A stretch of DNA of 64,000 nt from a plasmid. The stretch is taken from the NCBI RefSeq assembly GCF_057098645.1, contig NZ_JBXSPU010000002.1. One strand, written 5' to 3'. Every line of letters begins with the position of its first letter. Within the stretch, counting starts at the first letter, position 1. The position numbers were made by a program. Below are positions 39,001 to 48,000 of this stretch, in pieces.

Positions 39001-42000
39001 GACGGCTCTCGCAGCGGAGTTTTTCACTTTGGATGAAGTTAACCGACTCAAGATTATTCAGGACGTCATCGACCGGCGTCTGACAACACAGATGGCAGCG
39101 CAGCGGCTTGGTATCTCCGACCGCCAGTGCCGTCGTCTGCTTGCGCGTTATCGTGAAGATGGTCCGCTTGGCATGACCAGCCGCCGTCGTGGTAAATCCA
39201 GCAATAATCAGCTGCCTCAGGGACTGGCCGCATACGCGCTGAATATTATTCGCGAACGCTATAACGATTTCGGTCCGACTCTGGCCTGTGAAAAACTGGC
39301 TGAGGTTCACGGCGTTCATATTTCCAAAGAAACGGTTCGTAAGTTGATGACTCAGGCCAGTCTTTGGGTTCCACGTAAGCAACGTGCGCCAAAAATCCAG
39401 CAGCCGCGTTACCGACGTGCCTGTGCCGGTGAACTCATACAAATTGACGGCTGCGACCATCACTGGTTTGAAAACCGGGGACCCAAGTGTACAGCACTGG
39501 TTTACGTTGATGACGCCACCAGTCGTCTGATGCAGCTTCGTTTCGTAAAATCTGAATCGACTTTCACCTATTTTGAAGCGACACGGGGCTATATTGAAAT
39601 GCATGGTAAGCCACTGGCGCTCTATAGCGACAAAGCCAGTGTCTTCAGGATCAACAATAAAAATGCCACTGGCGGCGAAGGCGAAACGCAGTTTGGACGT
39701 GCGATGCACGAACTGAACATTCAAACCATCTGTGCAGAAACCAGCGCAGCAAAAGGTCGTGTTGAGCGGGCGCATCTAACCCTTCAGGACAGACTGGTCA
39801 AGGAACTCAGGCTTCAGGGCATCAGCACAATGGAATCTGCTAACGCATTTGCCGAAGAGTTCATGAACGATTACAACCGACGTTTTTCAAAAGCGCCTCG
39901 CCAGGAGTTCGATGTTCATCGGGAACTGGATGTCGATGATGATCTTGATATGGTGTTTACTTGGCGTGAAGCCCGCCGCGTGTCGAAATCACTCACTGTG
40001 CAGTACGACAAAGTGCTTTACCTCATTGAAGACAATGAGTTCAGTCGTCGGGCGATTGGTAAATACATTGATGTCTGGCATTACCCTGACGGACATAAAG
40101 AGCTCCGGCTTAATGGCGTATCACTTCCCTACTCCACCTATGACAAACTGTCTGAAATCGATCAGGGTGCCATTGTGGACAATAAACGTCTTGGCCGTGC
40201 GCTGGAGATGGCGCAACTTGTGCAGGCCGAACGGGATAATAACCGGTCACAATCAGTGCCATCCGGTGACGGCCCTTCACGCAGGCGCAAAGCCCCTACG
40301 ACGAAGAAATCCCAGCGTTCTTTGGACCAGGACGATATGTTCAATGCACTTGTAAAACTTCAGACACGAGCTGAGGAGATTTTTGGTGAACGCAACCAAA
40401 AATGATGTTTTGATACGAACATTTCAATGGTTAATAGATAGAGTGGAGATGGGCAGATGATAACGTTTTCTATGGATGAAAGTGGCTATACGGGTTATGA
40501 CTTACTCCACAAAGAGCAAAAATTCCAAGGCGCGTCATCAATATTAATAAATCATGATGACGCCAGTCGTCTGATAAAAGAATATTTCCCCAAACTTCAA
40601 GCCGATGAATTGAAGTACAGCTCGCTGAAAAGAAGAGATTCCAACCGCAAGCCATTATTTGAATTGCAAAAGCATCTCTTATCTAATTACCCATGTATAA
40701 CATGCGTAGGTGATAAACGCTTTTTACTAATTCTTATGTTCATCGATTATGCTGTTGAACCATTCTATTATGATTCTGGGATTAATCTTTATGAAGATGG
40801 CGGTAACTTCTCAATGGCATCAATGGTGTATTACGTTGGACCAGCGTATTATGGCTCTGCCTTTGATGATGTTCTGCTTCAGTTTCAAAATGCTATGAAA
40901 GAAAAAACATTAGATTCAGTGAGTTTGCTAATAAGCAAAATAAGGAGGCTTGATTGGCAAAGGTTAAAAGAGTTTTTTGGTCCTTTGGCATTTAACCACC
41001 CAGATTGCATTGATGCCATCATGACTGATGGAATTAGCACTGATGCCTCATTTACTATTTTAAATGCATTAATTTCTCGCACGGAAATGATGTCCTCTGG
41101 AGAGTATGCAATTGAGCATGATCGTTCTAAAAATCTGCTAACTTACAATGAACGCCTTAACTTTTTGATCAATTGTGATAAGGAAGGAGAGTTTAAACAT
41201 TCCGAGATAGCAACTATCTCATTCCCTCTAAACCTTAAAAAAGTCTATCAAATTGATTCGAAAGAAAGCCCAAGCGTGCAATTGTGTGATGTTCTTATAG
41301 GTGCATGTATTGAATCAGTTTATCAATTAATGGACTCTAAGGTGCTCAATCAAAATTCCGTTCTTTCACTTTACCAAGATAGCCAGTTAATACATTTCAT
41401 ACCTGATATAGATTTTGAAGGACAGAAAAAATTTAGGAAAGGCAGTCAAAGTGAGGAGTATCTTACGTTTATTCAAAATGAAATCTACTCTAGTAAACTT
41501 TAAAAAAAGGTTCTGAAAATCAGAACCTTATCGCACCACCAGACATAGAAATGATTCGTGAAGCTATTTTATACAGAACCAAAAACGCAAAGGCCAAAAC
41601 AGTCATGATATCTAATACCATAGGCATTACCTCCACTAACGTATTCAAAACAGCAGTTCAGATTGCAGAAGTGGATTGTTTTCGTTCATCAATATCTCCA
41701 AGAAAATAAATATGTACCTGATTATAGAAAATAAAAATCTCTCATTGTTTGATTAACTGTGTAGAAGATAAAATAAATACCCAAAAGCAATAGTGGATAA
41801 TGCTAACACCACACAATTAGCAATGTACCAGATCAATGTTTGGAACTTAAGCCGCCAGATCATTTCAGGCTCTTTACCGCTTGAAACTGAGCCTCTACCT
41901 TCACTGACTAACTTATCAGCATTTTTAAAATGCTGATAAGTTGAACCAGCACGAAAAGTAAGCCATGCCATACCTAACATTATGAATCCAAATAAATAAA

Positions 42001-45000: not shown

Positions 45001-48000
45001 TGACGTAAAAGATTTGGCTGCGCAACTTAATGCTGCAACCGGCAGCGACTGGTCGAGGGCATCACTTATTCGCCAGATCAAAGGTTCAGTTAATGAATGT
45101 CGAATAACCCAGGAAGAATATCATTATCTTCGATCGTTGCTCCCCTCACGCCCAGCAGACTATGACCAGAAATTTTTCCGTTTTATTGACTTGTTTGCTG
45201 GGATCGGTGGCCTCCGGAGTGGTTTTGACGCCATTGGCGGGAAATGCGTGTTTACAAGCGAATGGAATCAGTTCTCCCGCCGGACATACAGTGCAAACTG
45301 GTACTGTGACGAGACTGAGCACTATTTCAACTCAGATATCCGGGACATTACACTCAGTAATCTTCCCGATGTTTCGGATGACCAGGCCTATGCTTCTATC
45401 GATGCATCCATCCCAGACCATGATGTTTTGCTCGCAGGTTTCCCATGCCAACCGTTCAGTATTGCCGGTGTCAGCAAAAAGAACTCTTTGGGCCGAAAAC
45501 ACGGCTTTGAATGCGACACCCAGGGGACCCTTTTTTTTGATGTCGCCCGGATCATCCGAGCCAAACAGCCTGCCATTTTCGTTCTTGAGAACGTAAAAAA
45601 TCTGAAGAGCCACGATAAGGGAAATACGTTCCGCATCATCATGAAAGCGCTTGATGAACTTGGCTACGATGTTGCCGACTGCGATGCTCACGGATCAAAG
45701 GACCCCAAAATAATTGACGGTAAGAACTTCAGGCCTCAGCACCGGGAACGTATCGTGTTGGTTGGATTCAGGCGCGATCTGAAGCTCCATGATGGCTTTT
45801 CGTTAAGTGGTGTATCGGCTCTTTATCCTTCACGACGGCCAACCCTTGGGGAGCTGCTGGACGCTGAGGTCGATAGCCGTTACATCCTTTCTCCAAAGCT
45901 CTGGGAGTACCTTTATAACTACGCTAAAAAGCACCAGGCAAAAGGTAATGGATTTGGCTTCGGACTGGTAAATCCACTTGATAAATCAGTTGTTTGCAGA
46001 ACACTCAGCGCACGGTACTATCGTGATGGCTCTGAAATTTTGCTAGACCGTGGATGGGATCACAGCATAGGCGAAAAGGACTTTAATGATCCTGTAAATA
46101 TGGCAAGGCGCCCGCGCCGTTTAACCCCGCGAGAATGTGCCCGCCTTATGGGATTCGAGCAACCGGGAAAAGTTACTTTTCGCATTCCAGTCTCTGATAC
46201 CCAGGCCTATCGCCAGTTCGGCAATTCGGTCATCGTCGACGTATTTGCGGCCGTGGCCAGTTTGCTTCGAAGCCGTATTGAGATCGCCGTTGCGGCTCGT
46301 CTCAAGGGAGAGTTTGAAGCGGCATCATAGTAATTCTTCTGTGTGATTTTGCAGGTTAACGTAATGGTTTATTTCACTAATATTGTAACTTTTACACAGA
46401 AAAAAACCTGGGCAGGGAGAGAAAGGCCTGCTTCAGTCAACTCCTTCATCAGGAGGTAATGATGACGTATTTTGATTCAGCAGAAGACCTCACCATTTCA
46501 AAACAGAGAGCTCTGCAAGAGCTTGCAAAACATGGCGTCGTAGCCAGCGACATAGACGTATTTTTTTCCGAGTTGGGTGAGAGGGAAGAGTACAACGCGC
46601 AAGAAGTATTGATATGGCTAGGCTATTAGTATTTTTAAATTTCAGGAGGTCCCATGGGCCAGAAGTTTGCAGTTTTTATTGCTTACGATGACGAACCAAA
46701 CACGAAACGATACTCGGCTGAATTTCAGACACAGGATGAGTATGTAAAGGGATGGCAGTCGGCCCTGAAGAAAGCACACCACACGTCCGGGCAGAAATCT
46801 GTGATCAGCTGCGGATGTCGGGGAAAAGGCGCAAAGCGTCTCTACGTCCGCTCACTACCAAACAGTGATACGTTCATCCTGATTAAGGCTGCAAATACAG
46901 GCACTGAGCATGATCCATCGTGTGTGTTTTTCGACCTTGATGCCAGGCATACAGGGTTAAAGGGTTATGCCAGCAATGTTGTACGCATCAACAATGAGGG
47001 GACCATGTCAATCCGCCTTGGAATAGGCATGACGGAGAAAGATCCGCCGGAAAAGTCTGAGGTTCCTTCCCTGCCCCAAATCCAGCGACCTGAAGGTGGC
47101 CAGGCTTCAATGACCCTCTCCGGACTTCTGAGTTTGTTGTGGACTGAAGCCGGTCTTAATGTCTGGTATCCGAATATGGCCGGGAAGCGAAATGATTCGC
47201 TGGTTCGATACCGGATGTTGGAAGCCGCAAAGCAGATTAGATCGGGTAGAGCATGTATTGGCGACCATCTTTTTATCGGGGTGGCGGACTCTAAAAGCAA
47301 AGTGGCCAGTGAGCAGGTTCAACTGCTGTCGTCGGCGGAACTGAGCGACAAACGACTGCTGCTGCTATCAGTACTGCCGCGCTATGACGCAGAAAAGCAT
47401 GAGAAGCCGCTGAAGTTTCTACCTATGCGTAACTTCGGCGGTATGCCCCTTACCTTCTTTAACTCAGACGGGCACTGGGATAGCGTGAAGCGGCGATTCC
47501 CTCTGGAATATGCCGCCTGGAAAAATGGGGGCAAAGTTGTTGTTTTTGCTCTTACATCTCCCGTATCGGTGACCAGTAGAGGTATCTCTGCACGAGCTCA
47601 TCAGATAGTGCTTATGCTGGTGAGTGATAACTGGATACCTCTGGACTCCTCCTACGAAGCGATAGTGTCCCGTAAACTTGATGCCGAACACCGGCACTAT
47701 GTTAAGCCTATGCGGTATGACGCCAGTGCGAGCGATGTTTTCCCAGATTTTTATTTACTGGATACACGAAGTGATAAGCCGTTCCCGATGGAAGTTTTCG
47801 GGATGTCGACACCTGCCTATCTTGCGCGAAAGGAACTTAAGAAGGCGTATTACAACCAGGAATATGGGGCCTATGGATGGTGGCACTGGGATGCTACGGA
47901 GAAGACTGAATACCAGGAACTCCCTCATTTCCCGGAAGCTAGACGATAAAATTAACCCGAATCACAACCTTAAAATTGGGCTAAAAATGGCGTACATACT

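Follow-up and report, generated by a model that had tools for sequence, protein, structure and literature searches.

The question raised by this locus is whether a minus-strand cluster of nuclease-like genes, divergent from an orphan dcm, is a separately acquired unit or a part of the plasmid that carries it. The window, that is, the whole 64-kb stretch of DNA that was analyzed, is IncHI1 plasmid backbone with 100% identity to pYPE10-190k-tetX4, and IncHI1 plasmids match it at 100% identity. Determinants found on IncHI plasmids include mcr-1, tet(X4), and the multidrug resistance of typhoid, and the non-enzyme genes of the block are all annotated as hypothetical.

ORF calling showed five co-directional ORFs on the minus strand. 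In gene order, these encode an SNase (44164..44679, 171 aa from an ATG downstream of an RBS), a 307-aa protein (43235..44158), a PLD protein (42400..43179, 259 aa), a small protein (42116..42346), and a 99-aa protein (41753..42052, an ORF present in RefSeq records). Successive genes lie 5, 55, about 53, and 63 nt apart, which bears out the tight co-directional array of the initial annotation. A terminator-like hairpin on the same strand (41507..41529), with a stem of 10 bp and a T run after it, closes the array and sits between it and a convergent DUF3800 gene. An AT-rich control region of 223 bp (44680..44902, GC 0.368) separates the SNase from a Dcm-type C5 methyltransferase on the plus strand (44903..46330, 475 aa), which is followed on that strand by a 56-aa protein (46459..46629) and by a DUF1173 protein (46654..47949, 431 aa, PF06666), with which the dcm operon ends.

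The high AT content first ascribed to the whole block applies only to the PLD and 99-aa genes (GC 0.338 and 0.353), as well as to the neighboring DUF3800 gene (0.356), whereas the 307-aa gene (0.457) and the SNase (0.484) lie at the window mean of 0.468. The proposal that the block was acquired separately as a whole is not supported, since dcm and DUF1173, as well as the SNase and 307-aa genes, are ancestral in the backbone of every IncHI lineage and have average GC. A later addition is suggested only for the PLD cassette and the AT-rich genes beside it. The interval is a composite piece of the IncHI backbone and not a single acquired cassette.

The comparison with other plasmids shows which genes stay together. 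The SNase and a ~300-aa gene, divergent from dcm, the 56-aa gene, and DUF1173, are found in pHCM1, IncHI1B, and IncHI2. The same order occurs in metagenomic plasmid contigs in which the ~300-aa protein retains 39% and 25% identity, and again in L020/L021; the divergence from dcm is kept far beyond IncHI1. In six lineages, the order and translational coupling of the SNase and ~300-aa genes are strict, with spacers of 2–17 nt, and L008 has an SNase and 315-aa pair alone. The 76-aa and 99-aa genes are kept in the three IncHI lineages. The five genes of the array are not conserved as a unit, as the comparison with IncHI1B, IncHI2, and the distant contigs showed. The block as a whole occurs in 2% of complete E. 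coli genomes, and the 307-aa gene in about 1,400 sequenced plasmids.

Synteny of this kind may come from shared backbone descent and not from functional coupling, a point that was counted against the module described below. Also counted against it are one distant ~300-aa homologue without an SNase (L009) and the more distant DUF1173 proteins, which are not linked to dcm.

All loci with synteny share further IncHI-like backbone genes, for instance DUF4942 and a coiled-coil protein; in L020, two further genes separate the SNase from dcm with neither side lost, and DUF1173 is found elsewhere in other contexts. These observations would fit unrelated backbone and cargo genes held together by vertical descent, both enzymes being generic, the SNase as a plasmid nuclease and dcm as an anti-restriction methylase, in which case ordinary backbone annotation would suffice. 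We consider this unlikely. The synteny persists down to 25% identity of the partner, the coupling of the SNase to the ~300-aa gene is tighter than backbone synteny alone requires, and a cis element is conserved at the start of the operon. Our best reading, for which belief and doubt are evenly balanced, is that the interval would be a plasmid DNA-traffic and establishment module, with an ancient core of two divergent operons under one common control region.

The PLD gene would be a later addition to this core. It is absent from IncHI1B and IncHI2, with the junctions visible in the alignment, and, as judged from the sequences aligned, the cassette is an AT-rich insertion of ~0.9 kb specific to IncHI1 that separates the 307-aa gene from the 76-aa gene. 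Immediately before the PLD gene is a promoter-like site. The assignment of its product to the PLD superfamily holds (PLDc_2, E 3.4e-7 in profile search; phrog_9329, E 1.6e-69). The motif HxK(x)4E(x)6SxN is intact, and 16 diverse relatives show no variation at its residues H84, K86, E91 (D to E), S98, and N100. The protein has a single HKD motif, as BfiI and Nuc do, and, like BfiI, an additional C-terminal domain, here putatively DNA-binding; unlike Nuc, it has no signal peptide. In the relative P0065, an H-NS DNA-binding domain takes the place of this one, which suggests that the family may be targeted to DNA. IncHI1 would have gained a stand-alone HKD nuclease with a DNA-binding tail. The family comprises >3600 clusters and is stand-alone, with homologues in filamentous (inovirus) prophages of Vibrio and in Acinetobacter chromosomes. 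In PADLOC, weak matches to DrmC (E 6e-6 and weaker) and MkoB were obtained, and the C-terminus matches the candidate PDC-S69. Membership in DISARM was rejected, because the NCBIfam DrmC score (18.8 bits) is far below the cutoff of 133 and no DrmA or DrmB partner is found in the neighborhood; unlike DrmC, the family stands without DISARM partners and also rides in the Vibrio prophages.

A small protein and a small membrane protein had been proposed for the end of the array. Both ORFs are real, but the small one is most likely of 76 aa (42346..42116), as its homologues indicate, and not of 95 aa. The longer version is an upstream extension to 42403 that overlaps the PLD stop and has no counterpart in IncHI1B. 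Homologues of the 76-aa protein show 84% identity in IncHI1B, where the gene directly follows a 312-aa gene, and 52% in IncHI2; profile searches of NCBIfam, PADLOC, and PHROG gave no family match. The 99-aa protein has two hydrophobic helices, consistent with two TM segments, and is conserved in order and strand with 96% identity in IncHI1B and 34% in IncHI2. Within the proposed module, the genes of the 76-aa and then the 99-aa membrane protein come after the ancient SNase and ~300-aa pair in the three IncHI lineages.

The secreted SNase-like nuclease of the initial annotation was confirmed. The Pfam SNase profile matches residues 51–147 (E 3.1e-22), and a PDB thermonuclease matches at about 1e-9. 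The catalytic D/D/R/D/E/R set aligns to staphylococcal nuclease, with IDGDT, the R in "irl", D-a-p-E, and YGR kept. In detail, the positions equal to the Ca-binding and catalytic Asp21, Asp40, Glu43, Arg35, and Arg87 of the S. aureus nuclease are all present in the alignment. The N-terminus reads as a Sec-type signal peptide (MTLLKKLLLPTLIVLFPAATLA/AQS), with a basic n-region, a hydrophobic core of 16 residues, and a TLA/A site, and a hydrophobic N-terminus is common to all orthologues. From knowledge of the family, we infer a periplasmic location and Ca dependence. A role of the SNase in cytoplasmic restriction is not supported, as the signal peptide points to export. In the module, the exported enzyme would destroy unprotected periplasmic DNA or RNA, such as transforming DNA or the genomes of pilus-dependent phages.

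Comparable plasmid-borne periplasmic nucleases are pKM101 Nuc and RP4 ParB, of the PLD and SNase families, respectively; historically, no clear phenotype is known for such nucleases, e.g., pKM101 Nuc, which also counts against the module. As in those cases, a conjugative plasmid encodes a nuclease that is presumably exported and sugar-nonspecific, here with its SNase fold and catalytic residues preserved. Unlike them, the SNase has a ~300-aa CoiA-like protein as a strictly coupled partner and a Dcm methylase opposite it, and a conserved palindrome lies within its signal-peptide codons. A thermonuclease gene adjoining transfer genes has been described on pLPU83a (PMC13055273).

The 307-aa protein is the cytoplasmic partner of the SNase. 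The SD sequence of its gene overlaps the SNase stop, with a spacer of 5 nt. No sequence family was matched in profile searches. Its predicted model suggests a Zn-ribbon of C2HC type at the N-terminus, followed by a CoiA-like/PD-(D/E)XK-like core and then by a C-terminal domain of beta-sheet and helix. The reported Cys/His cluster (C30-x2-C33...H47...C56) is real, but it is not invariant among the family. The CoiA-like fold suggested for the protein was recovered with this model, as CoiA proteins occupy Foldseek ranks 19–23 (E 4e-5 to 8e-4), directly behind the family's own members. The Pfam CoiA profile matched none of 24 members, and weak matches to DUF7828 and DUF7830 came from single members of the family alignment.

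CoiA acts in competence as an ssDNA endonuclease and resolves D-loops (bioRxiv 10.1101/2024.02.06.579203). The modeled 307-aa protein appears to resemble it in the N-terminal Cys/His zinc motif, the PD-(D/E)XK-type core, and the C-terminal extension. On the other hand, CoiA sits in the competence regulon and the 307-aa protein in a plasmid context, and the Asp (beta-2) and Glu (beta-3) that CoiA requires are not conserved. No acidic residue is invariant in the aligned core (residues 60–190), where the invariant positions are L72, P92, W118, S120, G123, and W187. A nuclease role for the family is therefore not supported. In every comparison, the ~300-aa protein has diverged two- to three-fold faster than the four proteins encoded around it.

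A cytoplasmic partner with no conserved catalytic residues, in strict order and translational coupling with a nuclease over six lineages, could be an immunity or chaperone factor that keeps the SNase precursor neutralized until it is exported, in the manner of Nin with NucA or of NuiA with NucA. Small immunity and anti-CRISPR proteins came up as low-level fold matches, which agrees with such a pair. However, it appears quite improbable. SNase-family enzymes require millimolar Ca2+ and are not known to depend on inhibitors; the SNase is well conserved, its partner evolves much faster, and no co-variation of the two is apparent; the homologue in L009 has no adjacent SNase; and inhibitors are seldom as big as a Zn-ribbon protein of 300 aa. 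In the establishment module that we prefer, a Sec-exported Ca-dependent nuclease would be translationally coupled to a cytoplasmic, catalytically degenerate CoiA-like protein with a Zn-ribbon, and this fast-evolving partner would bind nucleic acid rather than cut it, or would bind another protein.

The second operon of the module would consist of the methyltransferase, the 56-aa protein, and DUF1173. As initially annotated, the methyltransferase is full-length and has no recognizable restriction partner and no vsr. It scores 849.2 bits against PRK10458 of NCBIfam (cutoff 710) and 332 bits against TIGR00675, its best PADLOC model is the orphan MTase (704 bits), and it carries the DNA_meth_N and DNA_methylase domains. 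Motifs I (FxGxG, read as FAGIGG), IV (PCQ), and VI (ENV, in LENVKNL) are present in the translation, as is GNSV. From family membership only, its specificity is presumably CCWGG. No neighbor matched an REase model of NCBIfam or PADLOC, which leaves no cognate REase for a type II restriction-modification system. Likewise, a dcm-vsr pair was dismissed, as no vsr-sized ORF overlaps or follows dcm, only the 56-aa ORF and DUF1173. The enzyme is similar to orphan Dcm or M.EcoRII-type enzymes in its score above the PRK10458 cutoff, its domains, and the missing restriction partner, and differs in its surroundings, where in place of vsr a conserved 56-aa gene and DUF1173 follow. By pre-methylating CCWGG, it may allow plasmid and host to survive EcoRII-type restriction. 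The 56-aa protein (phrog_25588, E 3.8e-29) is conserved in every lineage, with homologues of 49–100% identity in L002–L006. DUF1173, recognized by RefSeq and Pfam, has a Cys/His motif at the N-terminus and a PD-(D/E)XK-like domain at the C-terminus; the family has been described (PMC3045609).

The initial annotation had proposed an uncharacterized defence or DNA-degradation system. In such a system, Dcm would mark self and the SNase, CoiA-like, and PLD proteins would destroy unmarked invading DNA. Three nuclease-type folds do adjoin a methylase, and this adjacency is kept over deep divergence; the PLD protein has the weak DrmC, MkoB, and PDC-S69 resemblances given above, and its homologues are cargo of filamentous prophages in Vibrio. 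Even so, a system of this sort is hardly probable and the claim is not supported. PADLOC and NCBIfam recognized no known defence system in the block; the PADLOC matches are generic or weak (orphan MTase, DrmC-like PLD, SNase domain), none is at system level, and the DrmC score is far too low. The SNase cannot restrict cytoplasmic DNA because it has a signal peptide, the 307-aa family has no conserved catalytic acids, and the PLD gene is missing in most lineages that retain the rest and stands elsewhere without a methylase.

The SNase operon of the preferred module has a conserved cis element at its start. As had been noted, a palindrome copy lies just inside the 5′ end of the SNase gene (AAAAGTAACTTTT, 13 bp, 44654..44666, codons 4–9), and the palindrome AAAAGTWACTTTT has 10 perfect copies in the 64 kb against 0.15 expected. 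At the equal SNase position, it is perfect in IncHI1B, L005, and L006 and has one mismatch in IncHI2, despite SNase identities of only 54–73% between lineages. The palindrome is a candidate operator, which would gate the SNase operon as a member of a plasmid-wide family. A gene for a ParB-HTH protein has copies upstream of itself, and this protein possibly binds the palindrome. The operator network of RK2 KorB, made up of 13-bp palindromes, offers an analogue. In both cases, copies of the palindrome occur throughout the plasmid, some at promoters and others farther away, and the ParB-HTH protein, here a candidate binder only, has copies upstream of its own gene; the sequence, AAAAGTWACTTTT, differs from the KorB operator. 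The motif was not found in a plasmid context in the literature searched.

A more far-reaching proposal, to which we give little credence, is that the SNase and CoiA-like genes together with dcm, the 56-aa gene, and DUF1173 form an unrecognized two-compartment system for DNA surveillance or establishment in IncHI-like plasmids. It would combine a periplasmic nuclease, two cytoplasmic proteins of Zn-ribbon/PD-(D/E)XK-like type, and self-marking methylation, switched by an undescribed ParB-type operator network of AAAAGTWACTTTT. If the SNase, its partner, and the methylase govern DNA entry or survival in the host, they bear on the host range of the plasmid and on how it competes with phages and other plasmids. 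The palindromes could regulate IncHI plasmids globally and offer a way to interfere with them.

In the alignment of the control region between SNase and dcm, the palindrome is the only invariant block of 12 columns. A −10-like element, TGnTAnAAT, is common to all five aligned lineages, and the conserved TGgTACAAT on the minus strand (44740..44748) is a putative extended −10 of the SNase operon promoter.

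The divergent gene order DUF1173←~55 aa←dcm facing SNase→~300 aa was found in pHCM1 (IncHI1), p34983 (IncHI1B) and pP136-1 (IncHI2). The same five genes (SNase, ~300-aa, dcm, ~55-aa and DUF1173) are carried by two metagenomic plasmid contigs, whose 300-aa proteins show 39% and 25% identity to the 307-aa protein of the window (43235–44158, minus strand). In two further loci (L020 and L021) the five-gene core is found again, plus two additional genes between SNase and dcm. Locus L008 retains the SNase→315-aa pair, and one distant 300-aa homologue stands alone beside parA/parB. Downstream of the 300-aa gene, IncHI1B and IncHI2 also carry the 76-aa (42116–42346, minus strand) and 99-aa (41753–42052, minus strand) genes, with 84% and 96% identity, respectively, in the former and 52% and 34% in the latter. 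An ancient divergent two-operon core with a lineage-specific PLD insertion is well supported.

The five minus-strand ORFs that the initial annotation described are all present in the window, as is the divergent dcm; the finding is real but partly mis-described. The genes had been taken as a single unit, which does not hold, as the PLD gene (42400–43179, minus strand) is absent from IncHI1B and IncHI2, which keep the other genes. Similarly, the AT-richness attributed to the whole block applies to its distal half only (GC of 0.338 for the PLD and 0.353 for the 99-aa gene, with 0.356 for the neighbouring DUF3800 gene), and not to the 307-aa gene (0.457) and SNase (0.484), the GC of the window being 0.468.

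The 6.3 kb round the block are 100% identical to many conjugative IncHI1-type plasmids of ~190 kb from Escherichia coli, Salmonella, Klebsiella and Citrobacter (e.g., pYPE10-190k-tetX4), with 297 PLSDB records matched. Among 5426 complete E. coli genomes, 118 carry the block, nearly always on plasmids. The window also includes a MOBH Tra1 region (mobI, relaxase, coupling protein, trhH and a TraG-like gene), and ~28 kb separate the module from the putative oriT near mobI. That the conserved order reflects mere backbone synteny is considered unlikely.

The initial call of a PLD-superfamily HKD protein was borne out (PLDc_2, 3.4e-7). The motif is an HKD with Glu in place of Asp; across 16 aligned, diverse relatives, H84, K86, E91, S98 and N100 do not vary. 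In IncHI1B, which lacks the gene, the 312-aa gene stops 21 nt ahead of the 76-aa gene. pHCM1 does carry the PLD gene, but in interrupted form, beside the transposase of the IS4-family ISVsa5 and tet(B) genes. The family is large (>3,600 clusters) and stand-alone; its members are cargo of Vibrio filamentous prophages, adjoining Rep_trans and Zot, and are also located on Acinetobacter chromosomes with no methylase nearby. Because of its absence from IncHI1B and IncHI2, its stand-alone occurrence elsewhere and a promoter-like site directly upstream of its start, the PLD gene is read as a probable cassette of ~0.9 kb inserted into an older operon. A Klebsiella pneumoniae relative (P0065), with a PLD N-domain of 78% identity to the window protein, is a natural chimera in which an H-NS C-terminal DNA-binding domain replaces the usual C-terminal domain.

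The SNase call is firm (Pfam SNase, 3.1e-22). The gene (44164–44679, minus strand) starts with the ATG at 44679, preceded by GGGAGAA, and encodes 171 aa. With its N-terminal MTLLKKLLLPTLIVLFPAATLA/AQS, the product has a putative Sec signal peptide, and the Ca-binding and catalytic residues are retained in the alignment with staphylococcal nuclease. The 307-aa gene starts 5 nt past the SNase stop, which its Shine-Dalgarno overlaps. Dcm (44903–46330, plus strand) was also correctly recognized (PRK10458, 849 bits against a cutoff of 710), with motifs I, IV and VI, and, as had been stated, neither a vsr-sized ORF nor a recognizable restriction gene is adjacent to it. For the small ORF, 76 aa appear more likely than 95 aa, as the IncHI1B orthologue lacks an equivalent of the first 19 codons of the longer form. 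Within the 99-aa membrane-protein gene, a perfect 33-nt inverted repeat (41910–41942, AACTTATCAGCATTTT A AAAATGCTGATAAGTT; 16-nt arms, 1-nt spacer) is identical in the IncHI1B orthologue. Between this gene and a terminator hairpin there is a short hydrophobic minus-strand ORF (41520–41648; 33 aa from an ATG behind GGAGG, MVLDIMTVLAFAFLVLYKIASRIISMSGGAIRF), which may encode a small membrane peptide or a toxin; RefSeq annotates instead a 52-aa ORF on the other strand.

The 307-aa protein had no match by sequence in Pfam, NCBIfam, PADLOC and PHROGs, nor in the PDB by sequence or profile. Its family is very small: a set of 5.8 billion proteins contains 23 of its clusters, and 1.84 billion representatives gave 24 matches. 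The Cys/His cluster reported for it is found in most members (C30-x2-C33…H47…C56), but not in all. An AlphaFold2 model built with 24 sequences reached a pLDDT of 78 and a pTM of 0.61. The initial annotation had proposed a structure search for CoiA-like folds, and in Foldseek against AFDB50, CoiA and CoiA-like proteins rank directly after the family's own members (E 4e-5 to 8e-4, TM ~0.4, 200–240 columns). In CoiA, a zinc motif at the N-terminus is followed by a PD-(D/E)XK core, whose catalytic residues are an Asp in β2 and a Glu in β3, and by a C-terminal extension (bioRxiv 10.1101/2024.02.06.579203). In contrast, the core of the 307-aa family contains no invariant acidic residue in the family alignment; over the whole protein, the invariant positions are L72, P92, W118, S120, G123, W187, E236, L263 and C285. 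Based on the structural matches and this missing acidic residue, the modelled fold is concluded to be CoiA-like and probably catalytically degenerate, with membership in the CoiA family not established.

In every comparison made, the 307-aa protein diverges faster than its four neighbours (identities of 82% vs 89–97%, 52% vs 62–81%, 39% vs 49–68% and 25% vs 53–66%). Between IncHI1 and IncHI1B, its dN/dS of 0.18 and its dS of 0.53, against 0.05 in the adjoining SNase, are better explained by a recombinational exchange of alleles than by a relaxation of constraint. The divergence of the two lineages is sharply mosaic (window 43235–44679 vs 5657–7116 of the IncHI1B locus L003). This mosaic dS, together with 100% identity over ~330 nt of the small genes, indicates probable recombination breakpoints inside the operon. 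Four apparent SNase-307 fusions (P0023, P0029, P0035 and H9THC4) were rejected as designed fusions, their sequences being read as those of frameshift or deletion products.

DUF1173 proteins are reported to possess a Cys/His motif and a PD-(D/E)XK-like domain that lacks the canonical signature (PMC3045609), so the module (DUF1173 at 46654–47949, plus strand) apparently has proteins of similar architecture at its two flanks. The profile-profile comparison of the 307-aa family with DUF1173 was not significant (E 0.13), and a local RSDK-xFxxxxFxM similarity is a lead only. Scanning genome contigs with DUF1173 patterns returned nothing. In three distant loci (L023–L025), DUF1173 proteins of 24–32% identity adjoin large AAA, UvrD, ResIII or DEAD_2 helicase genes, which hints at a nuclease-helicase role of the family elsewhere. 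That DUF1173 is a Vsr analogue tied to dcm was rejected as a general rule, since more distant DUF1173 genes lack a neighbouring dcm and are found with helicase or ICE genes.

Within the 64 kb, the 13-bp palindrome AAAAGTWACTTTT occurs perfectly 10 times, against 0.15 expected, and with one mismatch four times; the copies are at 355, 473, 9579, 11309, 16045, 16530, 16970, 19608, 25145, 25227, 29762, 36512, 44654 and 46168. They lie in differing reading frames and in both coding and non-coding DNA, and three cluster round the mobI-proximal intergenic region (putative oriT, 15860–16589) and the adjacent gene start. The copy noticed earlier inside the SNase 5′ end is real (44654–44666, codons 4–9); it is perfect in IncHI1B, L005 and L006 and has one mismatch in IncHI2. 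In an alignment of the control region from five lineages (58% mean identity), it alone gives 12 consecutive invariant columns; the one further feature in common is an extended −10-like element (TGnTAnAAT) ~60 nt ahead of the SNase ATG. Copies also occur in the distant IncHI-like contigs L006, L009 and L010, and none in the unrelated loci checked. A 401-aa "DNA-binding protein" (579–1784, plus strand) contains a ParB-type HTH (PF17762, 3.3e-5), and its own gene is preceded by two copies of the palindrome, a perfect one at 473 and a near-perfect one at 355. The protein is a candidate for a KorB-like factor that binds the AAAAGTWACTTTT family. RK2 has a KorB operator network, which the copies and their putative binder resemble. 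The literature search gave no mention of the motif in a plasmid context.

From family knowledge, we infer that the methylase would provide anti-restriction methylation and SNase would clear nucleic acids in the periplasm, with the 307-aa protein as a possible non-catalytic partner in the cytoplasm and expression presumably gated by the candidate operator. The idea of a defence module was not supported. PADLOC models recognized no system and gave generic or weak matches only: an orphan-MTase call, weak DrmC and MkoB-type PLD matches, a generic SNase-domain match and, for the PLD C-terminus, candidate PDC-S69. The DrmC score of the PLD protein is far under the NCBIfam cutoff, and helicase, ATPase or other defence-system partners are absent from the neighbourhood. 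A true defence system is considered quite improbable. A nuclease-inhibitor pair of SNase and the 307-aa protein is likewise a doubtful reading. No functional study was found in the literature on IncHI nuclease/methylase genes, DUF1173 or AAAAGTWACTTTT; in a rhizobial study, a thermonuclease gene of unknown function is co-regulated with transfer genes (PMC13055273).

The neighbour of the block is a GC-poor DUF3800 gene convergent with it, which is abutted by the transposase gene of an ISNCY-family element (38966–41503); the DUF3800 product strongly matches phrog_12991. This junction differs in about one-third of the related plasmids, where the match begins 470 nt later. On the other side, the DUF4942 gene (49468–50334, minus strand) is missing from the PLSDB gene table of an identical plasmid and is split here by an in-frame stop into ORFs of 169 and 116 aa; it is intact in IncHI1B, IncHI2 and L005.
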